14,708 bases of DNA from UHGV virus genome UHGV-1345802. One strand, given 5' to 3'. The notes beneath the pieces are model-generated. The model worked only from the letters and a program-made list of their open reading frames with translations, did not search any database and had not been told where the DNA came from. How positions within the stretch are numbered: position 1 is the stretch's first letter; each line of letters begins with the position of its first letter. This stretch comes from a virus. A program made the translations under genes and the position numbers. Of this stretch, positions 2,221-14,708 are shown piece after piece.

Positions 2221-3036
2221 TCAGTGAACGGTATCGAGCAGCTTTAACAGCTCAGGGAATCGGGATTCGAAGAAATGCGGCTGCGTCTCGCGCGGATTTG
2301 CAGGACTGGTGATGTTCTTGCCGAACATGCAGCCTTTCGCTGTCAGCGACCAGAATTTTTTGATGTTGTTAATCGCGGTACGGCTGTATCGTTCGCGTTG
2401 TTCAACGATCCCCAGCTTCGCCATCTGGTGATATGCCTGATTAGCCGTCAGGCGGATACCATACTGCTTCAGCAGTGCACTCAGCGACAGCGTAGGGCGG
2501 CTTGAACCATCTGGCGCATCAGCAGGTGCATCAATGGCATAGATCGGCATAAGTTCAGGAAGACCAGCTACCTTTGATAATTTCTGGTATGCACCAAGTT
2601 TCGAGGAGTTTGACAGATTTAGAGTCTTTGCTGCTGATTCAAGCAGAATGACCCCGGATTTAATTTTGTCGGATGTGGTTTCTTCTGGTGATGAATTATG
2701 AAGCGCATCAAAAGTACGTATCACTTTTAAGCTGAATGCCGGGCTGATCCACATTGCATATGCATAGACCAGCTCTTTACAGACATACGTCCCACCATTG
2801 CGCCCCTGAATGGTGATGACAGGAATACTACGGGAATCTCCCGTAGTTTCTTCTTCCAATAATTCCACAAGAGCCTTCGTTTCAGGACGACGCATAAACT
2901 CGTGAACTTCCAGCGAACGGGAGGAGCGATTCTCACCAGCGGCAAGAAGAGCAGCTTTCTGAAGGTCGTTAAGACAGTAGTTAGATTCGAAGTACTGGCG
3001 CACAGAAACGCCATCAATTACAAGCAACTGATTCAT
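2221..3036 (-). CDS. KilA-N domain DNA-binding protein (antirepressor-like)
   Basis: The N-terminal region ...GGTYVCKELVYAYAMWISPAFSLKVIRTFD is typical of the KilA-N domain. ATG at 3036 is preceded by GGAG at 5-nt spacing; the ORF-track start at 3048 is GTG. Confidence 0.7.
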   Translation of the reverse strand: MNQLLVIDGVSVRQYFESNYCLNDLQKAALLAAGENRSSRSLEVHEFMRRPETKALVELLEEETTGDSRSIPVITIQGRNGGTYVCKELVYAYAMWISPAFSLKVIRTFDALHNSSPEETTSDKIKSGVILLESAAKTLNLSNSSKLGAYQKLSKVAGLPELMPIYAIDAPADAPDGSSRPTLSLSALLKQYGIRLTANQAYHQMAKLGIVEQRERYSRTAINNIKKFWSLTAKGCMFGKNITSPANPRETQPHFFESRFPELLKLLDTVH

Positions 3037-3198
3037 TGGTTTCTCCACAAATTTTTATCCACGAGCGGGACTGCACTCCCTTTTCGTTGATGCAGGATGA
3101 ACTTACTGCGATTTTTAATAGTTATCAAGGATACACTGTTCATAAATACAGTATCTTTAACGAGGTAATACCCAAATTTAGGGTGTTGCTCAATTCCG

Positions 3199-3594
3199 TT
3201 ACCGAGTTGCTAATTTGCAACTCGCTTTTTCGTACTTACTGATAGTGATCTCGACCTTCCCTTCCGGGATAACCGGTCCCCACTCCACCAGCATTCTTTT
3301 CACCTGGCTGTCGTCTTCCCACACACCCGCGTGGGTCAGGGCGTCAAACAGCGCCTTGTTATAGTTGTCCAGATCGCGGATCCGGTTATCCGGAGGAAAC
3401 AACACGATCTCCACTGAAGCAGGTGCCGACGTTGGTTTCGGCAGACGACGTAACTGCTCAACTATTGCTGCACACGCCGCGCTCTGGAATTTTCGCCCCG
3501 CCGCGCTTATCAGGCTCTTACCAGCAAACGCCCCTTTGTTAGGGTGTCGCCAGTACGTGTTCACGCTGGGCGGAAAAGGCAGTATTAGCTTCAT
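3199..3594 (-). CDS. rusA: RusA-family Holliday junction resolvase
   Basis: MKLILPFPPSVNTYWRH...DLDNYNKALFDALTHAGVWEDDSQV matches the conserved RusA pattern (PPS-N-Y-R, DxDN, D-AL). ATGA start/stop overlap with the upstream gene at 3591-3594. Confidence 0.85.
   Translation of the reverse strand: MKLILPFPPSVNTYWRHPNKGAFAGKSLISAAGRKFQSAACAAIVEQLRRLPKPTSAPASVEIVLFPPDNRIRDLDNYNKALFDALTHAGVWEDDSQVKRMLVEWGPVIPEGKVEITISKYEKASCKLATR
3204..3230 (+). terminator. Plus-strand hairpin plus T-run inside the 3' end of rusA (possible antisense or convergent terminator)
   Basis: Stem GAGTTGC (3204-3210) / GCAACTC (3217-3223), loop TAATTT, then GCTTTTT. The T-run is on the plus strand only. Confidence 0.3.
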
Positions 3595-5057: not shown

Positions 5058-6041
5058 TCACCCCCTGAATCCTGTCGGGATCTGGCTGTAGTCCACGTTG
5101 TCGTAACTGGCTTTGAAGTACGGGTCCTCGCGTCTGGCTGCAGATACCGCAGGAACTTCCCAGGATTCTTCGAAATGACGATCCGGACCAAAGAACGTGA
5201 CAGCCTGTTTCACAAATTGTGTGCCGCTATTGCCCATCGCAGATACCCAGCCCGCGTAGCGTTTCACACCTTCCAGCATGGTTTCGGGGTTTACCCCCTC
5301 GTTCAAACGGGCTTTCCAGGCTTTGAAGGCTGCTGATTTTGAATTGCCACCAGCACGTTTGGGATATTCCTGCCAGGCCTGTTCAAATTCCGGTGAATAT
5401 TCCTGTCGGGCAGAACGCGCTGGCGCAGACGCGTCAGCGGATGCATCAATAGTGTTTTTAGTCTCCGTTGTAATCTCTGTAGTAATCTCTGTATTTGTAT
5501 CAACATTCGGCGTATCCCCTGTTCCGTTATGACGTCGGGGGGTGTTCCGTTTTAACGTAATAGCTGTATCGCTGATTGCATTATTGCTGTTACTTTCTGG
5601 CGAAACAGAAGAAGGTGTGGTGATGGCCGCAATTGCCTGTGGGTTGATCCCGACAAACAAAATATTGCTGCATTTCACCCCATCGAGCATTTCCACCGTG
5701 CGTAAATCCAGAGTAATAAACCCTGCATCGCGCAGACGCTTCAGCGCATCTGCGGTTTCCCTTTTCCCGAAACCAAACTGCTCAGCAAACGCCTGGTAGC
5801 TTCTTTGCAGTTTGTCGCCCTGAAAACGCTTGCGATATCCCAGCAACGCTCCGGTGTGCTCATCCCTGACCTCTGTCGGGCGGTACCAGTAAACGATCTC
5901 TGAAAGCAGAGCGATAGCCGTCGCATCCGGACGCCCACTGGGTAGTCGAATATATTTCCACCAGGTCGCAGGTGTAACATTGCCGGAAATATTAATTTGA
6001 CCAATAGCCATAACTTCCGGTGTGGGGGCGTAACGGCTCAT
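5058..6041 (-). CDS. Phage replication initiator-like protein (O-position; replisome organiser-like)
   Basis: 327 aa; ATG at 6041 preceded by a strong AGGAGG. It sits between the cro/CII-position genes and the nin-like region, has a Thr/Glu-rich linker encoded by a tandem DNA repeat, and a C-terminal region reminiscent of primosomal or replication proteins. Family assignment is from memory only. Confidence 0.6.
   Translation of the reverse strand: MSRYAPTPEVMAIGQINISGNVTPATWWKYIRLPSGRPDATAIALLSEIVYWYRPTEVRDEHTGALLGYRKRFQGDKLQRSYQAFAEQFGFGKRETADALKRLRDAGFITLDLRTVEMLDGVKCSNILFVGINPQAIAAITTPSSVSPESNSNNAISDTAITLKRNTPRRHNGTGDTPNVDTNTEITTEITTETKNTIDASADASAPARSARQEYSPEFEQAWQEYPKRAGGNSKSAAFKAWKARLNEGVNPETMLEGVKRYAGWVSAMGNSGTQFVKQAVTFFGPDRHFEESWEVPAVSAARREDPYFKASYDNVDYSQIPTGFRG
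5470..5493. repeat. Perfect 12-bp tandem repeat (GTAATCTCTGTA x2) inside the replication gene; candidate iteron/ori
   Basis: Read directly from the sequence; encodes TEITTEIT on the minus strand. Degenerate copies flank it (GTTGTAATCTC, GTATTTGTATC). Confidence 0.5.
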
Positions 6042-6337
6042 ACAACCTCCTTCCGCAGCATGAGAATTGTGTAGCCACGCGCAGGTTGTAGTCTGGCTTT
6101 TGCATCAATAGTAAGCGTTGCAATTTTTCGGATATGAAGATAACCAGCTCTTTCCAGTGCCAGGGTTTCCCTGAATATCGCTTGCTTAGAACAACAGCAG
6201 AAATCAGCAAGCACCTGATGATCAATAACTCTCTCGCCTTCACCGTCTGAAGAACCCGACATCAAAACGCGCAACATAATCAGGCGCTGAATCGGGTTAT
6301 CGAAAGCACATCCGCACACAAACTGAAAACAGTTCAC
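6038..6337 (-). CDS. Small HTH / winged-helix DNA-binding protein (replication-associated position)
   Basis: GTG at 6337 overlaps the upstream stop (GTGA) and has GGGAGG 6 nt upstream. ...HQVLADFCCCSKQAIFRETLALERAGYL looks like a helix-turn-helix. Confidence 0.5.
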   Translation of the reverse strand: MNCFQFVCGCAFDNPIQRLIMLRVLMSGSSDGEGERVIDHQVLADFCCCSKQAIFRETLALERAGYLHIRKIATLTIDAKARLQPARGYTILMLRKEVV

Positions 6338-6558
6338 GCCACACCTCCCAGACGCTTAAACATTTTTCCGGAGCAAAAGGCTATAAGCGGCATACTGACG
6401 CGGTAATTACGGCCCAGCGGTTCACAAATCACCTTCTGACATTCACGGTCAACCAGGCTAACACGTAGAACATGCCCTGCAGGCGTGGTGTACCACTGAC
6501 CCGGACGAGGACAACGGAAAGTCTGATTGGTAAAACGTTTGAAAATATTCCGGATCAT
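6334..6558 (-). CDS. Hypothetical small protein (74 aa)
   Basis: ATG at 6558 with GGGGG 5 nt upstream; ATGA overlap with the Rha-gene stop, and its own stop overlaps the next start. Confidence 0.5.
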   Translation of the reverse strand: MIRNIFKRFTNQTFRCPRPGQWYTTPAGHVLRVSLVDRECQKVICEPLGRNYRVSMPLIAFCSGKMFKRLGGVA

Positions 6559-7706
6559 TTGCGCCCCCTTGCCTCTGAAGGGTTCAGCGACAAATTTATG
6601 AGGCAGGCCAGCGCCGAAGCATCATTAATATAGTCATATAAGCTAACAGCCAGCGGAGATTCGGCTTTTGCCAACATAGGATAAAGCTGCTGCAGCCAGA
6701 CCTGATGAATTGATGAAATGTAGGAACAGAGAACGCTGGCGTTATGTGCAACGTCGCTCGGTACAGCAGGCTTTGAAAGCTGTTTCTCCATCTGGTTAAA
6801 GGCATTGATGTATGCCTCTTTGAACTTGGCAGCACGTTTACCCGTGAAACCCATAGCAAGAAACGCAAAACCGTCGCGGGTGATTTGGTAACAAGGGAGT
6901 TTGCGGCCTGATGCGTCGGTGTATTCACTTAACACAAAAATGTGTTCAGTAAATTCAGCGGAACATTCGAGGTTTCTAATTCTATCTAAAACCCGCTCAT
7001 GCCGTTTAGTAAAGTAATTAGCTACTGCAAGAGATGTGGTGACAACGCGACCATTGATAATCGTGATTTCAGGGTGAGATTGGGTTGGGAGAGTAGTCAT
7101 GGTGACAGCCCCTATGTTGAATTCAATGAACTCACCACCAAGGCTTTCCACGACCATATAGGTGGTGAGACGTACAGGGGTGGAAATACCGGTCAACATA
7201 GAACCCGGCCCAACCGAAGTTGGCCCTGCACGCCCCACCATAATTTGGGCGTAACGATGCTCATGACACGAAAAAACCGCATGAGCGCGGTTGTGCTCTA
7301 TATTGAATTTCGGGTTTCCACGCCCGGCACCCGCTTTATAAGGTGCCGGAACAGTGTAACGTCCCGGAATTGCAGAATCAATATGCTGGTGTTCCTTCAC
7401 ACTCAACAAAATCACGCCTGAATTTCCACAAAGGACTAAAGCACTCATGCGGGTAGTCTTTGCGAAGATAGATAACGCGCTGTGTTTCTGGCTCCCAACG
7501 AATAACATGGACATAAAGCCCTCTTCCGTCACGAAACCAGCGGTTAAGTTCCTGCACAACTCGCCCCCCACAGTCAGGTAAAGTTCTCTGTGGTTACTTA
7601 CAGCCAGGTGATTTGGTAATCTGCATTCATGCCGTAACAACAGGTGTTCAGCGACGCTGACCACCAGCTGTTGCGACAAACGGTTATTTGCCGTTAAACT
7701 GTTCAT
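6555..7706 (-). CDS. Rha-family phage regulatory protein with an unexplained ~200-aa N-terminal extension (possible fusion or two genes)
   Basis: Residues from the internal Met at 7100 (MTTLPTQSHPEITIINGRVVTTSLAVANYFTKRHERVLDRIRNL...) look like the Rha (pRha) domain. The frame is open upstream to an ATG at 7706 that overlaps the preceding stop (ATGA). The N-terminal 202 aa match no family I recognise. Confidence 0.6.
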   Translation of the reverse strand: MNSLTANNRLSQQLVVSVAEHLLLRHECRLPNHLAVSNHRELYLTVGGELCRNLTAGFVTEEGFMSMLFVGSQKHSALSIFAKTTRMSALVLCGNSGVILLSVKEHQHIDSAIPGRYTVPAPYKAGAGRGNPKFNIEHNRAHAVFSCHEHRYAQIMVGRAGPTSVGPGSMLTGISTPVRLTTYMVVESLGGEFIEFNIGAVTMTTLPTQSHPEITIINGRVVTTSLAVANYFTKRHERVLDRIRNLECSAEFTEHIFVLSEYTDASGRKLPCYQITRDGFAFLAMGFTGKRAAKFKEAYINAFNQMEKQLSKPAVPSDVAHNASVLCSYISSIHQVWLQQLYPMLAKAESPLAVSLYDYINDASALACLINLSLNPSEARGRK

Positions 7707-8365
7707 GCGTTAGTTTCTCCACAACCAGAAGCAATCGACGCCACGACGCCCGGAGCTGCACACTCGCGGGCGTTACTCTTTTCCGGCGCACAAAAAACAC
7801 GAAATAACAGTGTTAAATGCTCCTGCCACTTCGCCATTACTTGGTAGCTGTTCTCTTCGATTTGCTCACGCTCAGCCTGGTCAATAACTCCATCAGCAGT
7901 TGCCTTGCGTAAGTACTGGGAATGCTTGCCAATCCATTCTATTGACTCCATCAGCCGCTGATTAATGTCACCATTGTCAATGTCATCAATGTCCACCAGC
8001 GGCACAAACACCCCATTACAACGACGCGCTATCGCATCCGTTACATGCCTGGTACCACTGGCATCCTGTAAAACCATGGCCCACTCAAGTGGAAAAATTT
8101 GATCCCCACCGCTACGCAGTCTGTTATGCAATTGATCTTTCGCTGGGGTGATATCATCAGATTTATACAAACCAAGAATTTCCGCTGCTTCCTCATAGCC
8201 ATGAGGTAAATCAGCAATCGTTCTTCGTATTGCTGCCACCAGCCATGCTGGTTGCTTATCAACTTTCCATTCAGGTTCTTTACCCACGGTTAATTCCTCG
8301 TTTCTGTGGTTACGTTTACGCAGTTGAACCGCTAACTTTTTAATAGCACTCAGGTAATCCATCAT
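7703..8365 (-). CDS. CII-position regulatory protein (CII/YdaT-like, tentative)
   Basis: About 220 aa directly downstream of cro, the slot used by lysogeny-establishment regulators. Start is ambiguous (ATG 8365 or 8362, or ATG 8398); either overlaps the cro 3' end. Family is a tentative recollection. Confidence 0.4.
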   Translation of the reverse strand: MMDYLSAIKKLAVQLRKRNHRNEELTVGKEPEWKVDKQPAWLVAAIRRTIADLPHGYEEAAEILGLYKSDDITPAKDQLHNRLRSGGDQIFPLEWAMVLQDASGTRHVTDAIARRCNGVFVPLVDIDDIDNGDINQRLMESIEWIGKHSQYLRKATADGVIDQAEREQIEENSYQVMAKWQEHLTLLFRVFCAPEKSNARECAAPGVVASIASGCGETNA

Positions 8366-8587: not shown

Positions 8588-8649
8588 CCTCTGAAATTCA
8601 GAGGGATAATGCTACTTAAAATAGCAAATTGCAACTACTTAAAATAGAA
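8588..8649. promoter_or_regulatory. oR/pR-pRM divergent control region
   Basis: Candidate pR on the minus strand: -35 TTGCAA (8629-8634), 17-nt spacer, -10 CATTAT (complement of 8606-8611). Repeated CTACTTAAAATAG at 8612-8624 and 8635-8647. A 17-bp perfect palindrome CCTCTGAAATTCAGAGG (8588-8604) lies between the -10 and the cro Shine-Dalgarno. Confidence 0.55.
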
Positions 8650-9390
8650 ATGACTAGCGCGTGCGATGTGAGTAATCTTCTACCTATGGTAGAAGAACAG
8701 AAGTATCCAGATTTCGCCAAGAGACTAAACGAATTGATGACAATCAAAGGAATCTCTGTCACTCAACTCAAAAGTCTTGTGGGCGTTACATATGAAATGG
8801 CTCGTCGATACACAATCGGCGCAGCGAAGCCACGTGTCTCTGTCATGAGTAAACTTGCGTTGGCTCTTGGAGTATCAGCTTCATATCTAGAATATGGTGT
8901 TGGAGATAGAGAGGAATGTAAGGAAATGGCAAGCATCCCCAATCCAACAAAGCCCGATGTATACAGGATAGAAGTTTTGGATCTTAGCGTTAGCGCAGGA
9001 CCTGGGACCTATATGCTTTCAGACTATGTTGATGTGCTCTACGCCATTGAGTTCACAACTGAACATGCCCGTTCTCTTTTCGGAAACCGTTCTCAGAATG
9101 ATATAAAAGTTATGACGGTAAATGGAGATAGTATGTCCCCAACTCTTGTTTCCGGGGATCGATTGTTTGTCGACATTTCCGTTCGCCACTTCCAGACTGA
9201 TGGAGTTTACTCTTTCGTTTACGGTAAGACTTTCCATGTTAAACGTCTACAAATGCAAGGCAACAAACTAGCTGTTCTTTCGGATAACCCCGCCTATGAG
9301 AAATGGTACATTGATGAGAAGTCGCAAGATCAGCTTTATGTTATGGGTAAGGCACTGATTCATGAGTCGATTAAATATAATCGACTTTAA
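8650..9390 (+). CDS. cI: cI-type prophage repressor (HTH_XRE + S24 LexA-like peptidase)
   Basis: N-terminal HTH (LNELMTIKGISVTQLKSLVGVTYEMARRY) and a C-terminal S24 domain with GDSMSPTL and a downstream Lys (HVKRLQ). The start has no Shine-Dalgarno (ATG 8650 or ATG 8686; track start TTG 8629), consistent with a leaderless cI message. Confidence 0.85.
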   Translation: MTSACDVSNLLPMVEEQKYPDFAKRLNELMTIKGISVTQLKSLVGVTYEMARRYTIGAAKPRVSVMSKLALALGVSASYLEYGVGDREECKEMASIPNPTKPDVYRIEVLDLSVSAGPGTYMLSDYVDVLYAIEFTTEHARSLFGNRSQNDIKVMTVNGDSMSPTLVSGDRLFVDISVRHFQTDGVYSFVYGKTFHVKRLQMQGNKLAVLSDNPAYEKWYIDEKSQDQLYVMGKALIHESIKYNRL

Positions 9391-9624
9391 TTAGGCATCT
9401 AGCAATCGTTAAAGCAAACGAGCACAGATGATAAAAGATAAGGATAGAAAATCTTTATACAAATTTTATTTGGCACATTGGTCCATAAAAATGGATTAAC
9501 ACTGAGCTGTTACCCTAAGTAAGAAAAGATAAAGACCATATGTTATCTTTGGGTGCGTTACTAACACAAAAAAAACCAAAATAAAACATAAATAATAGAC
9601 AATTCTATACAACAGGATACGATA

Positions 9625-10710
9625 ATGATTAATGAACGTACTGAAGCGACAGATGGGGTAGCAGATATGATTTCCACCAATACAAAATATTTAGTATGGA
9701 ACAACAAAGGTGGTGTAGGAAAAACTTTTCTTACATATAATCTTGCCGTTGAGTTTGCTATATCTCATCCGGATCAAGATGTTGTGGTTATTGACTCATG
9801 CCCTCAATCAAACGTTTCAGAAATTATTCTTGGTGGCAATGGTACCGGGGAAGAAAATCTAAATAAATTGCGAGACAGAAATGTTACAATCGCAGGTTAT
9901 ATCAAGGAGCGTTTTAGCAAATCTCCTTTGTCTCGTTTAGGAAATGAATCTTCTTACTTTGTACGAGCCCATGATGTTAATGCAAAAATGCCAGAGAACT
10001 TATATATTCTTCCTGGTGATGTCGATCTTGATATCTGTTCACGCTTAATATCTCACATTGGCTCATCCCCAGTAAAAGAAGCATGGAAGAAAAGCCGATC
10101 TTTGCTGGTAGATCTAATAGCATCTTTTGAAGCCGATAAAAACATTTCTGACAGAGCAAAAACATTTTTTATTGATTGTAATCCAAGTTTTGCCAGCTAC
10201 ACAGAATTGGGAGTAGTCGCGGCAAATAGAATAATTATCCCTTGCACTGCCGATGCTGCATCAATTCGCGGAATAAAAAACCTTGTTAAACTTATTTATG
10301 GAGTGTCTATTGACAAGTCAGAACAAGATGAAATGTTCTTAGATTTCAACAAAGAAGCAAAGCAAAACCTTATCGAACTACCTGAACTACACCTTTTCGT
10401 ACAAAACCGCTCAAGAACTAATGAAAGTGATGCAGCAAAAGCATTCAAATCACATGCAGAAGAGATCAAAAGAATCACGGATGACCTGTTAAATACACAT
10501 CCTCATCTGTTCACAAATGTGGCTACTTTCGAGAGAGTTCAAAATGTCAAAGATGGTAATACTCTTGCAGCAATAATAAACCATGAGGGATGCCCTTTAA
10601 GTAGGCTGCAGCATAAGAGTTACACTATCTATGGTATGGCGACCCAAGCTAATAGAGCACAAATTGAAGCACTAGAATCTGATGTTTCAACAGTAGTCAA
10701 GTGTCTGTAA
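9625..10710 (+). CDS. Orphan ParA/MinD-family P-loop ATPase in the rex-equivalent position (candidate superinfection-exclusion or defence moron)
   Basis: Deviant Walker A NNKGGVGKT, then IDSCPQSN and FFIDCNPSF...IIIPCTADAASIRG matching ParA/Soj motifs; 361 aa with a long C-terminal extension. The gene and flanks are visibly AT-rich, and no ParB-like partner was seen. ATG at 9625 (AGGAT upstream); alternative ATG at 9670. Confidence 0.75.
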   Translation: MINERTEATDGVADMISTNTKYLVWNNKGGVGKTFLTYNLAVEFAISHPDQDVVVIDSCPQSNVSEIILGGNGTGEENLNKLRDRNVTIAGYIKERFSKSPLSRLGNESSYFVRAHDVNAKMPENLYILPGDVDLDICSRLISHIGSSPVKEAWKKSRSLLVDLIASFEADKNISDRAKTFFIDCNPSFASYTELGVVAANRIIIPCTADAASIRGIKNLVKLIYGVSIDKSEQDEMFLDFNKEAKQNLIELPELHLFVQNRSRTNESDAAKAFKSHAEEIKRITDDLLNTHPHLFTNVATFERVQNVKDGNTLAAIINHEGCPLSRLQHKSYTIYGMATQANRAQIEALESDVSTVVKCL

Positions 10711-10746
10711 TACAATAACCATGATTTAGAACGAACATAATTCTCG

Positions 10747-10770
10747 CCCGACCAACAGGTCGGGTTTTAT
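10747..10770 (+). terminator. Intrinsic terminator after the ParA-like gene (tImm-like)
   Basis: Stem CCCGACC (10747-10753) / GGTCGGG (10758-10764), loop AACA, followed by TTTTAT. Confidence 0.7.
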
Positions 10771-10985
10771 ACTCGTAGCCTGCTTAATAACACTGTTCCT
10801 GACCCGTTGTATCCATAGTTCCCACTATTTTCCCCAAAATTATTACTATCTAATTAACCTAATAATTAAACCAAAACAAAAGACACTCGATATTTTCTAT
10901 ACGTAACTACACCACATCCCCCCATCTGTGAAAAACCTTTTAATTCATAACGTTATATAGAAAACTAAAAATTAAATACACACTT

Positions 10986-11027
10986 CTACTTTTTGTTGTT
11001 GATTTTTGCTACTTTTAGTAGCATCAT
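10986..11027 (+). promoter_or_regulatory. Candidate pL/oL: near-duplicate of the pR/oR cassette
   Basis: -35 TTGATT (10999-11004), 17-nt spacer TTTGCTACTTTTAGTAG (differs from the pR spacer at 2 positions), -10 CATCAT (11022-11027). Operator-like CTACTT motifs at 10986-10995 and 11009-11021. Confidence 0.5.
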
Positions 11028-11037
11028 TATCTGAACA

Positions 11038-11054
11038 AACAACAGACTGTTGTT
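11038..11054. repeat. 17-bp perfect palindrome AACAACAGACTGTTGTT at the predicted start of the leftward early transcript
   Basis: Read directly from the sequence. Same position relative to the promoter as the unrelated palindrome at 8588-8604 downstream of pR. Confidence 0.5.
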
Positions 11055-11439
11055 AACGAAAGGTTGGTTGTAACACGGCGTATGGCACATGCGTCGTTAG
11101 CGGTCTGGGGACGTTAAAGGGGACAATCCACTCCTTGCTCGGGCAAACAAACCAGGTAGCCGGAATGTGCAAGTCAATGATGATGCTGATAAGACGCCTA
11201 ACCAGCGTGGCGATTCGGTTTGACGCTTGGGAAGAGACCAGGGTGCAACGATGAGGGCATTTATGGAGCCGCGACAAAGTGTGGTGCCGTAACTGGCTAA
11301 GTGCTCTCAGCGTTGTGGTAATCCGCGAAATGGCGCGGCGGTAAGTATGGCGGGGTTACTCTTTCCCCGTTGAGGACACCGGATTGTCAGGTTGACCATA
11401 CGCCTGAGTGACAACCCCACCACAACAGCCACTGCTTTG

Positions 11440-11485
11440 GCGGTACCAGTTTGTACACTTGCTTCCGGCTGGTACCGCTCTTTTT
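11440..11485 (+). terminator. Strong hairpin plus U-tract in the early-left leader (tL-like terminator or attenuator)
   Basis: 10-bp stem GCGGTACCAG (11440-11449) / CTGGTACCGC (11469-11478), 19-nt loop, followed by TCTTTTT. Confidence 0.5.
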
Positions 11486-11622
11486 ACAAAACAGAGAAGA
11501 GCATCACCGGACGACGGGCTCATAACCCAATCCATCCGGGCGGCTGCCACCGCAGGTGTTCTTCTCTGTTTTGTGGAGAAACCAACCGACCTTTCAGGGT
11601 CGATATGATGAGGAGCAGCAAA

Positions 11623-11985
11623 ATGGCTAGCGAACGCAGTACTGATGTGCAGGCATTTATCGGGGAGCTGGACGGCGGCGTATTTGAAACCAAAATCGGC
11701 GCAGTTCTCAGTGAAGTCGCTTCCGGTGTGATGAACACGAAAACCAAAGGTAAGGTCTCACTCAACCTGGAAATCGAACCATTTGATGAGAACCGTGTGA
11801 AAATCAAACACAAACTCTCATATGTTCGCCCGACTAACCGCGGCAAAATTTCCGAAGAAGACACCACCGAAACGCCGATGTATGTCAATCGCGGTGGTCG
11901 CCTGACTATTCTGCAGGAAGACCAGGGACAATTACTGACTCTTGCCGGTGAACCTGACGGAAAACTACGCGCAGCAGGTCATTAA
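11623..11985 (+). CDS. YfdP-like early-left protein (120 aa)
   Basis: ATG at 11623 with AGGAG 7 nt upstream; same length and gene order as the first gene of the CPS-53 yfdPQR cluster (recalled). The longer in-frame upstream extension in the ORF track starts at TTG and lacks a ribosome-binding site. Confidence 0.6.
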   Translation: MASERSTDVQAFIGELDGGVFETKIGAVLSEVASGVMNTKTKGKVSLNLEIEPFDENRVKIKHKLSYVRPTNRGKISEEDTTETPMYVNRGGRLTILQEDQGQLLTLAGEPDGKLRAAGH

Positions 11986-12050
11986 TATCGTTCTTAATTA
12001 ACTGATTATTTATCTCATCACTGAATATCTTTATATAGTGAGGACTTATT

Positions 12051-12875
12051 ATGTCTCAGAACTTAGACGCAACCGCAATTAATCAAATCCATGCCCTTAT
12101 TTCTGCTCAGGGTGTTAATGAAATTATCAGTAAGATTGGTGCCGATGCTGTGGCATTGCCTGAGAATTTCCGCATTCATGATCTGGAAAAATTTAATTTA
12201 AATCGCTTCCGTTTCCGTGGTGCGCTTTCCACTGCCAGCATCGATGACTTTACCCGTTATTCTAAAGATCTTGCAGATGAAGGCACCCGCTGCTTTATCG
12301 ATGCTGATAATATGCGTGCCGTCAGTGTACTTAACCTGGGTACTATTGATGAACCAGGTCACGCAGATAACACCGCCACTCTCAAACTGAAAAAGACAGC
12401 ACCGTTCTCTGCCCTGCTGTCTGTTAACGACGAGCGTAACTCCCAGAAGTCACTGGCAGAATGGATTGAAGACTGGGCCGACTACCTTGTGGGCTTTGAT
12501 GCTAATGGTGACGCTATTCAGGCAACAAAAGCGGCTGCGGCAGTCCGTAAAATCACGATTGAAGCAAACCAGACCGCTGATTTTGAAGATAATGACTTCA
12601 GCGGCAAACGCTCCCTGATGGAATCTGTCGAAGCGAAGACCAAAGACATTATGCCAGTGGCATTTGAATTTAAATGCGTTCCGTTTGAAGGTCTGAAAGA
12701 ACGTCCGTTTAAATTACGCCTCAGCATTATCACTGGCGATCGTCCTGTACTGGTTCTGCGCATTATTCAGCTGGAAGCGGTGCAGGAAGATATGGCTAAC
12801 GAATTTCGTGATCTGCTTGTTGAGAAATTCAAAGACAGCAAAGTAGAAACCTTTATTGGTACTTTCACCGCCTGA
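12051..12875 (+). CDS. YfdQ-like protein (DUF2303-type, 274 aa)
   Basis: ATG at 12051 preceded by GAGGA; length and position match YfdQ of prophage CPS-53 as recalled. Confidence 0.6.
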
Positions 12876-12887
12876 TTTCATTACTGC

Positions 12888-12909
12888 AAATGCCCCTGCG
12901 GGGGCATTT
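12888..12909 (+). terminator. Palindromic hairpin AAATGCCCC-TGCG-GGGGCATTT after the yfdQ-like gene (weak terminator or RNA-processing site)
   Basis: 9-bp arms with a 4-nt loop; only a short, interrupted U-tract follows. Confidence 0.35.
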
Positions 12910-13003
12910 ATGGAAACGTAATTAACTCAATAATCGCCGGATGGTGCGGGATTCCTTTTACCCGAATTCAGCGCGGTGCAGCGCATATAAAGTGGAGAAC
13001 GAA

Positions 13004-13540
13004 ATGTCATTTATTAAAACTTTTTCCGGGAAGCATTTTTATTATGACAAGATAAATAAAGACGACATCGTGATTAACGATATCGCGGTTTCCCTTTCAA
13101 ATATCTGTCGCTTTGCAGGACATCTTTCACACTTCTACAGTGTCGCCCAGCATGCGGTGCTTTGCAGCCAGCTGGTGCCGCAGGAATTTGCTTTTGAAGC
13201 GTTAATGCATGATGCAACAGAAGCGTATTGCCAGGACATCCCCGCACCACTGAAACGACTTCTTCCTGACTATAAACGGATGGAAGAAAAAATAGACGCC
13301 GTAATCCGTGAGAAATACGGGTTACCCCCGGTTATGAGTACACCCGTGAAATATGCCGATCTCATCATGCTGGCAACCGAACGCCGCGATCTCGGGCTTG
13401 ATGATGGCTCTTTCTGGCCAGTACTGGAAGGTATCCCGGCAACAGAAATGTTCAAAGTTATTCCACTGGCTCCGAGCCATGCCTACGGGATGTTTATGGA
13501 GCGCTTTAACGAGTTATCGGAGTTACGCACATGCGCATGA
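13004..13540 (+). CDS. HD-domain phosphohydrolase (YfdR-like 5'-deoxynucleotidase)
   Basis: H...HD motif (SVAQHA ... MHDATE) typical of the HD superfamily; 178 aa. ATG at 13004 with GGAG 6 nt upstream. Confidence 0.7.
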   Translation: MSFIKTFSGKHFYYDKINKDDIVINDIAVSLSNICRFAGHLSHFYSVAQHAVLCSQLVPQEFAFEALMHDATEAYCQDIPAPLKRLLPDYKRMEEKIDAVIREKYGLPPVMSTPVKYADLIMLATERRDLGLDDGSFWPVLEGIPATEMFKVIPLAPSHAYGMFMERFNELSELRTCA

Positions 13541-14142
13541 ATGTTTTCGAAATGGAAGGGTTTCTTCGCGGGAAATGTGTACCACGAGATCTGAAAGTGA
13601 ATGAAACAAATGCTGAATATCTGGTGCGTAAATTTGCTGAAGCGGAGGCCAAGATTTTGGCTCTGTCCGAAGACCAACAGAAAGCGATTGAGTCAATTAA
13701 GCAGGCTGATGCAGCTGTTAAGTTGGCACACGAGAAGTTTTCGGCGCTGGCGGCGGAGAATGCGGGGCTGAAACACGCAATGGCCGTAACTCTTGAGCAT
13801 GTGTCGGTCACGGATGCAGGGCAGGCTGGTGTTGCTGCAATGATTATCAACGATGCCCTGCACCACAGCGAAACTCCAGCCACCGATGCTTTCCTGGCTG
13901 AAATTCGTGCGGAAGCACGCAACGAGGGGATTAACTATACCGCAAGCCGTCTTGCTGCTGCTTTCAATCACGGATTTATCAATAAGTCTTTACGTGAAGT
14001 TTTCGACGTTACACGCATGATTCTGTCAGCGAAAGAAGAGTTGGCTAATGAACCACACCCGATTGATGGCCTGTCCGGTGAATATGCGGAGAAATCCCTA
14101 GAAGAATGGGCGGAACAGATTCGCAAAGGAGGCAACCAGTGA
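13531..14142 (+). CDS. Hypothetical phage protein (about 200 aa), Ala/Glu-rich and helical
   Basis: ATG at 13531 (GGAG upstream), or ATG at 13537 overlapping the preceding stop (ATGA). Confidence 0.5.
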   Translation: MRMNVFEMEGFLRGKCVPRDLKVNETNAEYLVRKFAEAEAKILALSEDQQKAIESIKQADAAVKLAHEKFSALAAENAGLKHAMAVTLEHVSVTDAGQAGVAAMIINDALHHSETPATDAFLAEIRAEARNEGINYTASRLAAAFNHGFINKSLREVFDVTRMILSAKEELANEPHPIDGLSGEYAEKSLEEWAEQIRKGGNQ

Positions 14143-14363
14143 GCGGAAAAAGAATGACTAACAGAGAGCTTGTTGATGCCGCGATTAAGCTTGCTGGTGA
14201 TTTTTATTCAATGATGGGGTACGCGCATCGCCCTGGATTCAAATATTGGGAATCACCGCATCCGCAAGAGCAACTGGTATTTCAAATGGCCTGCCGTGCT
14301 TTTGAGGTTATTCGCGGTTCTGATGTGATGGACGCCGTTGCCGACTTGGAGGATGAAGAGTGA
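14139..14363 (+). CDS. Small hypothetical protein (74 aa)
   Basis: GTG at 14139 overlaps the upstream stop and is preceded by AGGAGG at 14124-14129; the track's ATG at 14106 lacks a ribosome-binding site. Confidence 0.45.
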   Translation: MSGKRMTNRELVDAAIKLAGDFYSMMGYAHRPGFKYWESPHPQEQLVFQMACRAFEVIRGSDVMDAVADLEDEE

Positions 14364-14708
14364 CCCAAATTAACTATCAGGCACTGCGTGAGGCAGCAGT
14401 AGCAATTGAAACAGTGGCAACGCCTCAAAAATTGCAGGCGTTTCGGATGAAGGTCACACCGTCGGTAGTACTGGCGCTGCTGGATGAAATTAAGCGCCTG
14501 GAGGACACAAATATTGATGCTATGTGCCGAATTGCAGAACTGGAAGCGAGGGAAGTTCAATTACCGACTCGCTACGACCTTCGATATGGACACCCGATAA
14601 ATGCAGATGAGCGACAAGTCATGATACCTAAAGAAAATGGCAGTTGGCTTTACCTGATTGACCTAGAACACGCATTACGCGTCGCTGACATTCGCATCAA
14701 AGGAGAGT
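14360..14708 (+). CDS. Partial ORF (3' end outside the window), Ead/Ea22-like early protein
   Basis: GTG at 14360 overlaps the preceding TGA and has GGAGGA 6 nt upstream. Open to the window end (VTQINYQALREAAVAIETVATPQKLQAFRMKV...); family recalled loosely. Confidence 0.4.
   Translation, partial: MTQINYQALREAAVAIETVATPQKLQAFRMKVTPSVVLALLDEIKRLEDTNIDAMCRIAELEAREVQLPTRYDLRYGHPINADERQVMIPKENGSWLYLIDLEHALRVADIRIKGE

Follow-up and report, generated by a model that had tools for sequence, protein, structure and literature searches.

A cassette of three early genes, yfdP, yfdQ and yfdR, occupies positions 11623-13540 of the virus genome UHGV-1345802, a stretch of 14,708 nucleotides that was analysed at its full length and is referred to here as the window. 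On comparison of sequences, the three are with certainty the orthologues of yfdP, yfdQ and yfdR of CPS-53 (KplE1), a cryptic prophage of Escherichia coli K-12. YfdR is read here, at a probability of roughly 60%, as a dual-function early protein: in enterobacterial lambdoid phages it would interfere with the initiation of host replication, and it would retain an ancestral phosphohydrolase activity that is still under selection. The cassette is already known as a common and partly characterised prophage module, and its identification is correct but ordinary. Three side observations had not previously been noted: yfdP and yfdQ as a core pair, the 36-chain structure deposited as Protein Data Bank (PDB) entry 9o7m, and a conserved leader RNA upstream of yfdP.

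All three genes lie on the plus strand. The first, yfdP (11623-11985), encodes 120 amino acids (aa) behind a GAGGAG sequence 8 nucleotides (nt) upstream and matches PHROG 204 (E 1e-49). The second, yfdQ (12051-12875), has a GAGGA ribosome-binding site and encodes a 274-aa protein of the DUF2303 family (PF10065). The third, yfdR (13004-13540), has a GGAG site and encodes a 178-aa HD-domain protein of the Atu1052/YfbR-like type (PHROG 318, E 2e-109); a longer open reading frame (ORF) of 199 aa, from 12941, encloses it, starting from an upstream ATG that lacks a ribosome-binding site. Reference proteins were those of the MG1655 CPS-53 prophage, taken from NC_000913.3 and compared by BLASTP. YfdP is identical to its K-12 counterpart at 119 of 120 positions (99%, E 3e-90), YfdQ at 272 of 274 (99%) and YfdR at 174 of 178 (98%, E 2e-136), the four YfdR substitutions being K151, S158, E170 and T176 in the window for N, G, D and K in K-12. 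Gene order and spacing are those of K-12 yfdP (b2359), yfdQ (b2360) and yfdR (b2361). The sequence-only reading had proposed a likeness to this cluster from the lengths (120, 274 and 178 aa) and order of the genes; lengths, coordinates and order are confirmed, and alignment with the K-12 proteins finds, in place of no similarity, 98-99% identity. Homology rather than chance is the explanation, because the identity is this high, the order is the same, the Pfam match is full-length and the HD residues are kept. No PADLOC defence model matches the cassette proteins.

The flanks differ between the two prophages. CPS-53 has lost its operator, leader and repressor, and only some 25 nt upstream of yfdP are common to it and the window. 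Downstream come yfdS (DUF551), yfdT and torI in K-12, and in the window a YfdS-like gene of mosaic structure, an ORF of 74 aa and an Ead/Ea22-like gene.

Among complete E. coli genomes, 3183 of 5426 carry the cassette (megablast), as do phages SfV, mEp460, cdtI and Lys8385Vzw and many Shiga toxin (Stx)-converting phages; RefSeq already labels the genes yfdP, yfdQ and yfdR. In SfV, mEp460 (gp35-gp33), cdtI, Lys8385Vzw and Stx2-converting phages the same cassette stands directly downstream of the immunity region. These phages, together with the ‘no Rec module’ LLS/ST64B group (PMC12315714), resemble the window in having neither N nor Red, Erf or RecT. Nucleotide identity to phage records is 93-95% over matched parts, each amounting to 50-61% of the window. 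Coverage reaches at most 61% with any phage record and 78% with the best E. coli genome, and none matches the whole; by this measure the window is a new mosaic. The order cI, yfdP, yfdQ, yfdR homologue, xis, int is kept in prophages of Klebsiella, Serratia, Kosakonia, Leclercia and Yersinia. The Serratia and Klebsiella YfdR homologues align at 58-63% identity with the HD residues kept, and those of Kosakonia, Leclercia and Yersinia, which were outside the YfdR alignment, are genes of 178-180 aa. These diverse relatives were drawn from contigs encoding family representatives; a scan of IMG/VR with the YfdQ alignment returned near-identical (99%) loci only and was of no use for distant synteny.

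YfdR retains H50, H69, D70, E73, D78 and D119, the full set of HD residues, and among the 150 best family representatives each of these six positions is kept in 139-146. The HD phosphohydrolase motif proposed earlier for the third gene is therefore borne out: every residue is intact, and alignment reveals no loss of catalytic positions. H69, D70, E73 and D78 align with H68, D69, E72 and D77 of YfbR, a dCMP phosphohydrolase/5'-deoxynucleotidase encoded by a chromosomal housekeeping gene, and the YfdR core ALMHDATEAYCQDIPAPLK pairs with the YfbR core AMYHDASEVLTGDLPTPVK. A central HD motif, HDAxExxxxDxPxPxK, is common to both proteins. H50 and D119 probably correspond to YfbR H33 and D137, to judge from local motifs that lie outside the pairwise alignment. 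This residue set shows YfdR to be a predicted HD-domain metal-dependent phosphohydrolase with its catalytic residues intact.

YfdR is 21% identical to E. coli YfbR. Its matches to the Pfam families YfbR-like (PF12917; 24.3 bits, gathering score 25.9) and HD_3 (17.0 bits, gathering score 22.5) fall slightly short of threshold and cover the core only, and the NCBIfam equivalog NF003009 places it outside the YfbR orthologues, at 19.9 bits for a cut-off of 122. As YfdR falls below the equivalog cut-off and shares 21% identity with YfbR, the RefSeq product name ‘5'-deoxynucleotidase’ derives from what the K-12 gene is called and not from orthology to YfbR. The closest solved relative is Atu1052 of Agrobacterium (PDB 2gz4; E 5.6e-14, residues 18-176, HD motifs in register), which gives a fold for YfdR and not a mechanism, because it has no assigned function. 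An exhaustive search yields 22,780 family representatives at E<=1e-3, and 333 phage records include a YfdR-type HD protein, among them records of phages that infect Caulobacter, Bacillus and Stenotrophomonas; the YfdR of phage Lys8385Vzw is 100% identical to that of the window.

The better documented activity of YfdR is its interaction with the host initiator. K-12 YfdR binds domain I of DnaA through Phe46 and competes moderately with DiaA and DnaB (PMC4776307). When supplied in multicopy, yfdQ and yfdR together with either yfdS or yfdT inhibit initiation at oriC, both in vivo and in vitro, and yfdP is dispensable for this effect (PMC4776307). The authors of that study liken the effect to the action of lambda P on DnaA and suggest an ancestral role of this kind. 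By their comparison, lambda P is a functional analogue: it is made early by the phage, binds DnaA and inhibits initiation by the host. The two proteins are unrelated in sequence and differ in their contacts, domain III of DnaA for P, which also loads DnaB, and domain I for YfdR. Since the protein used in the K-12 experiments is 98% identical to that of the window, the most likely role of YfdR in a live phage is to shut down, or to hijack, the initiation of host replication at an early stage. A low-affinity nucleotide phosphatase activity would be its second, and probably ancestral, function. The dual-function reading draws on the K-12 data, on the strong conservation of the catalytic residues and on the presence of YfdR-type proteins in the phages of unrelated hosts.

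Several points weigh against this reading. The oriC effect was seen with multicopy supply only, deletion of yfdQRST was without effect, and the authors concede that the inhibition may be an artefact of overexpression (PMC4776307). The set of genes tested in K-12 (Q and R with S or T) is only partly present in the window, because the YfdS-like protein shares the N-terminus alone with YfdS and YfdT is absent within the window bounds. Some relatives (in Xenorhabdus, in Cronobacter and in a Xanthomonas phage) have yfdP and yfdQ without yfdR, and experiments on an intact inducible phage were not found in the literature. The 333 phage records, spread over unrelated hosts, fit a conserved enzymatic role better than a DnaA interaction specific to E. 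coli.

This last point leads to a tentative alternative, less probable than the dual-function reading, in which YfdR is mainly an enzyme: an early nucleotide phosphohydrolase that would reshape the pools of nucleoside and deoxynucleoside monophosphates (NMP and dNMP) or destroy a signalling or modified nucleotide, its DnaA binding being incidental. The retained catalytic and metal residues, with their 139-146 in 150 conservation, the size of the family and its spread to phages of unrelated hosts, and the motif shared with YfbR, a characterised dNMP phosphatase, all speak for such an enzyme, and PHROG and RefSeq both label the protein a deoxyribonucleoside 5'-monophosphate phosphatase. However, YfdR's affinities for nucleotides fall well below YfbR's, and its function is called elusive, in the account that PMC4776307 gives of Zimmerman et al. 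2008; its score misses the YfbR equivalog cut-off by a wide margin (19.9 bits for 122) and that of Pfam YfbR-like by a narrow one (24.3 for 25.9); and deletion of yfdR from K-12 did not raise the yield of cytidine monophosphate (CMP) (PMC10870394). The earlier suggestion that a deoxynucleotidase of the early operon could alter dNMP pools or act on modified nucleotides comes close to this alternative and is plausible, if weakly backed, DnaA binding being the better documented activity.

The dual-function reading would have the cassette expressed after derepression, and the layout of the region is consistent with this. A cI-like repressor gene (8629-9390, plus strand; HTH_3 and Peptidase_S24, Pfam E 2e-16; PHROG 4) lies upstream of the cassette in the same direction. 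A perfect palindrome of the left-operator (OL) type, TGCTACTTTTAGTAGCA, stands at 11007-11023 and has its half-sites in common with the right operator (OR) at 8610-8626. These two sites are the only perfect matches in the window to the pattern TGCTACTN5TAGCA; when up to 2 mismatches are allowed, the two strands together give 6, for 0.85 expected from shuffled sequences. A putative weak promoter (TTGATT-17-CATCAT, 8/12 matches) overlaps the OL operator, and a strong intrinsic terminator is found at 10746-10765 (plus strand). The operator, the terminator and the arrangement of strands make the yfd genes the first genes of a repressor-controlled early-left operon. An early-left position had been claimed from the first, and it holds: the genes run with the cI-like gene, downstream of both terminator and operator. 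In a lysogen, binding of the repressor to the OL palindrome would silence the cassette; on derepression, transcription would cross a structured leader of ∼590 nt and reach the genes for YfdP, YfdQ, YfdR and the YfdS-like protein.

Such control bears on a quite different proposal, in which the cassette mainly benefits the lysogen, its expression from the prophage raising tolerance of oxidative, acid or replication stress. Cells become more sensitive to hydrogen peroxide (H2O2) when CPS-53 as a whole, or either yfdQ or yfdS, is deleted, according to the citation of Wang et al. 2010 in PMC4776307. SrsR, a stationary-phase regulator, binds most strongly in K-12 at the spacer between yfdO and yfdP (PMC9181523), and the decayed prophage of K-12, like most E. 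coli genomes, still has the cassette. In the window, however, the cassette is placed behind a repressor-controlled operator and a leader that contains a terminator. The SrsR boxes of K-12 are absent there, the 6 matches at 2 mismatches comparing with 6.6 by chance, and the promoter context in K-12, a deletion junction, has only ∼25 nt in common with the intact leader. A benefit chiefly to the lysogen is accordingly judged very unlikely.

The cassette takes the place in which lambda has gam, bet and exo, and the sequence-only reading had held that it replaces them. As a matter of position this stands. Searches with Pfam, PHROG and NCBIfam of the plus-strand ORFs from 9625 to the end of the window find no Red, Erf, RecT, exonuclease or Gam/Abc. 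No Red, Erf or RecT is annotated between cI and int in the relatives from E. coli, mEp460, Serratia, Klebsiella, Cronobacter, Kosakonia, Yersinia and Leclercia, where this interval holds yfdP, yfdQ and usually yfdR, followed by xis and int. The sole recombination-related gene of the window encodes RusA (3199-3594, minus strand) and belongs to the early-right operon. In these respects the relatives of the window match the phage LLS group, the ‘no Rec module’ lambdoids (PMC12315714). As a matter of function, replacement is not supported, because there are phages that have the cassette and a full Rec module as well: ArgO145 (PMC12315714), and Xanthomonas phage MET23-P3, where yfdP and yfdQ occur alongside ERF, a YqaJ exonuclease and a single-stranded DNA-binding protein (SSB).

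It might still be that YfdP and YfdQ, with or without YfdR, act in recombination or DNA repair as a module so far unrecognised, substituting for Red, Erf or RecT in lambdoid phages that have no Rec module. The location of the genes at the gam, bet and exo position, in phages that have no recognisable Rec module (PMC12315714), speaks for this. PMC4776307 further cites a weak sensitivity of a yfdQ deletion to methyl methanesulfonate (MMS) and H2O2. In MET23-P3 the pair lies just upstream of ERF, the YqaJ exonuclease and SSB, and the 36 YfdQ chains of PDB 9o7m suggest a large assembly. Yet complete Rec modules accompany the cassette in ArgO145 (PMC12315714) and in MET23-P3; the predicted structures of YfdP and YfdQ do not resemble the folds of annealing proteins, exonucleases or Gam/Ku; and both proteins are acidic, with isoelectric points of 4.9 and 5.7. 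A 2025 comparative study concluded that hidden recombinases among these genes are unlikely (PMC12315714), and the proposal is regarded as improbable here too.

Apart from YfdR, yfdP and yfdQ form a conserved core pair that reaches a Xanthomonas phage. The pair persists where unrelated genes replace yfdR, in Xenorhabdus, in Cronobacter and in that phage, and the two genes are an older and closely linked pair. YfdQ matches Pfam DUF2303 over nearly all of its length (PF10065; E 8.4e-92, 307.6 bits for a cut-off of 26.6; residues 7-272 on profile positions 2-269 of 269). Among its conserved motifs are RFRG, PGHADN and QKxxAEWxED. YfdP belongs to family PF27127, which every cluster representative found carries in its precomputed annotation; a local copy of Pfam gave no match to YfdP and probably predates the PF27127 model. 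The AlphaFold2 (AF2) models of both proteins are of medium confidence and gave no informative fold match. The model of YfdP consists of a single long helix, a sheet of three strands and a disordered tail, and the YfdQ model has a predicted local distance difference test (pLDDT) score of 75.

A PDB sequence search matches YfdQ to chain C of entry 9o7m, ‘YfdQ Protein’ (E 2.8e-43). The entry has 36 chains, which suggests a large YfdQ assembly, and its protein corresponds to Xanthomonas phage MET23-P3; the entry was absent from the fold libraries used, and no publication for it or for MET23-P3 was found in the literature. In this phage (locus L102, 9571-14706) yfdP and yfdQ are directly upstream of a gene for a 401-aa protein, which is followed by ERF, the YqaJ exonuclease and SSB. 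A doubtful but wider reading is that yfdP and yfdQ are an ancient early module, extending from prophages of Enterobacterales to a Xanthomonas phage, with a task related to DNA replication or recombination, and that the yfdP leader is a new cis-acting RNA; the DUF2303 product may then form a large homo-oligomer, as the 36 chains would have it. If this were true, the module would matter most in lambdoids that have no Rec module, of which the related phage LLS also has no helicase loader (PMC12315714).

Between the OL operator and yfdP lie ∼590 nt in which neither a credible ORF nor an N homologue was found. The part nearer to yfdP (11312-11602, plus strand) is predicted to be a structured leader RNA. 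A multi-branch domain (11312-11426), closed by GUUGUGGU/ACCACAAC, is followed by a terminator-like GC hairpin with a U-run (11439-11487), a long hairpin that encloses two small stem-loops (11486-11574), the motif GGAGAAAC (11575-11582) and, last, a small hairpin (11587-11602). The minimum free energy of the 3' 330 nt is -139.6 kcal/mol (z -4.2 relative to shuffled sequence). The same layout precedes yfdP in 8 genera (loci L003 and L085-L098). The long hairpin, of 17-26 base pairs closed by ACAC/GUGU, is kept across wholly different sequences: those of E. coli, Serratia, Yersinia and Xenorhabdus differ entirely, and each folds, at z -3.7 to -9.5. By these folds the leader is a conserved, covarying structured RNA. 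Single-sequence folding was more informative here than RNAalifold, which gave a poor consensus on an automatic MAFFT alignment.

No Rfam family matches the leader, and three known kinds of RNA were considered and rejected. The leader has a CUCAUAA loop above a GGG/CCC stem and matches sequence that adjoins phage tRNA genes, features reminiscent of a tRNA or a tRNA remnant; ARAGORN finds no tRNA in the window. The Rfam model of DicF is unmatched even at E<=5. Comparison with a part of the HK022 genome that includes the early region yields nothing better than 14 nt, which speaks against HK022 put; a second copy of the leader in the window, as a put-type RNA would have, was not found. A relative does occur in phage P1: leader positions 11323-11418 (plus strand) are 75% identical to a stretch just downstream of the C1-controlled Pban promoter (locus L101, 1501-1594). 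This stretch is the leader of the ban operon and overlaps the annotated ‘dicF-like region’, which suggests an early-operon leader RNA shared by P1 and lambdoid phages.

The N leader of lambda is an RNase III-gated switch, and by analogy the yfdP leader is a candidate for a switch of this type or for a put-like RNA. It may act as a protein-independent antiterminator, or as an RNase III-gated switch, that replaces N and nut, or it may hold an RNase III site or be the source of a small RNA. Use of a put-like RNA has been speculated for the N-less phages of the LLS group (PMC12315714). A motif of the leader at 11570-11585 (plus strand), (T)TTGTGGAGAAAC, recurs exactly at 3036-3051, 678-690 and 7713-7724 on the minus strand. 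These copies are just upstream of, or across, the starts of KilA-N, Q and Rha; the motif looks like a preferred ribosome-binding context, and the listed starts of these three genes may be a few codons too early.

The window as a whole comes from a mosaic lambdoid prophage of E. coli and covers its immunity, replication and Nin-type region. A gene for a ParA-like ATPase (9625-10710, plus strand; Pfam AAA_31, E 3e-16) is inserted between cI and OL, upstream of the strong terminator, and is not found in most relatives of the SfV/mEp460 type. Region 9391-11000 has 36% G+C, the full stretch 9391-11400 is found in only 71 complete E. coli genomes, and the only PADLOC match of the ParA-like gene is a weak one to Drt5 (E 0.007). 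Lambda has rexAB at this place, between cI and OL, and the ParA-like gene could be an exclusion or partition gene expressed in the lysogen.

Downstream of the cassette on the plus strand, the YfdS-like gene (13531-14142; 203 aa; PHROG 614 and 14548) starts within the end of yfdR. K-12 YfdS is matched only over the first ∼35-47 residues (45 of 68 identical by BLASTP, N-terminus only); what follows is different and falls in other PHROG families, and the protein has no Pfam match. The 74-aa ORF (14139-14363; PHROG 4132) begins at a GTG that overlaps the preceding stop, with AAGGAGG upstream; on comparison it is not YfdT. The Ead/Ea22-like gene (14360-14708; PF13935, E 9.5e-8) runs past the end of the window.

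The minus strand encodes the Q antiterminator, DUF968/HNH, KilA-N, RusA, a LexA DNA-binding-domain protein, Dam and PerC, with Rha/Ash, CII-like and cro-like genes and a gene for a 327-aa protein that has no Pfam match. We take the last to correspond to the ‘replication protein’ that relatives have at the same position. The replication region (5058-6558, minus strand) consists of this gene and two small ORFs, with no recognisable helicase or helicase loader. LLS-type lambdoids present the same situation, and their replication is poorly understood (PMC12315714). Two Rfam matches on the minus strand exceed the gathering score, C4 antisense RNA (7158-7245, 82 bits) and the Hfq-binding RNA isrK (7270-7346, 62 bits), and both fall inside the 5' part of the 383-aa Rha/Ash ORF (6555-7706). 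They imply an antisense-controlled antirepressor module of the P1/Gifsy type, and the Rha/Ash ORF is perhaps called too long.

The annotation of the cassette is correct and changes nothing, and its wider relevance is modest. The yfd genes are among the most frequent early-gene sets of E. coli prophages, including those of Stx-converting phages. If the DnaA binding of YfdR operates during induction, lambdoid phages would have a second route, beside that of lambda P, to silence host initiation. Something new could still be learned from the leader RNA and from the pairing of yfdP with yfdQ.

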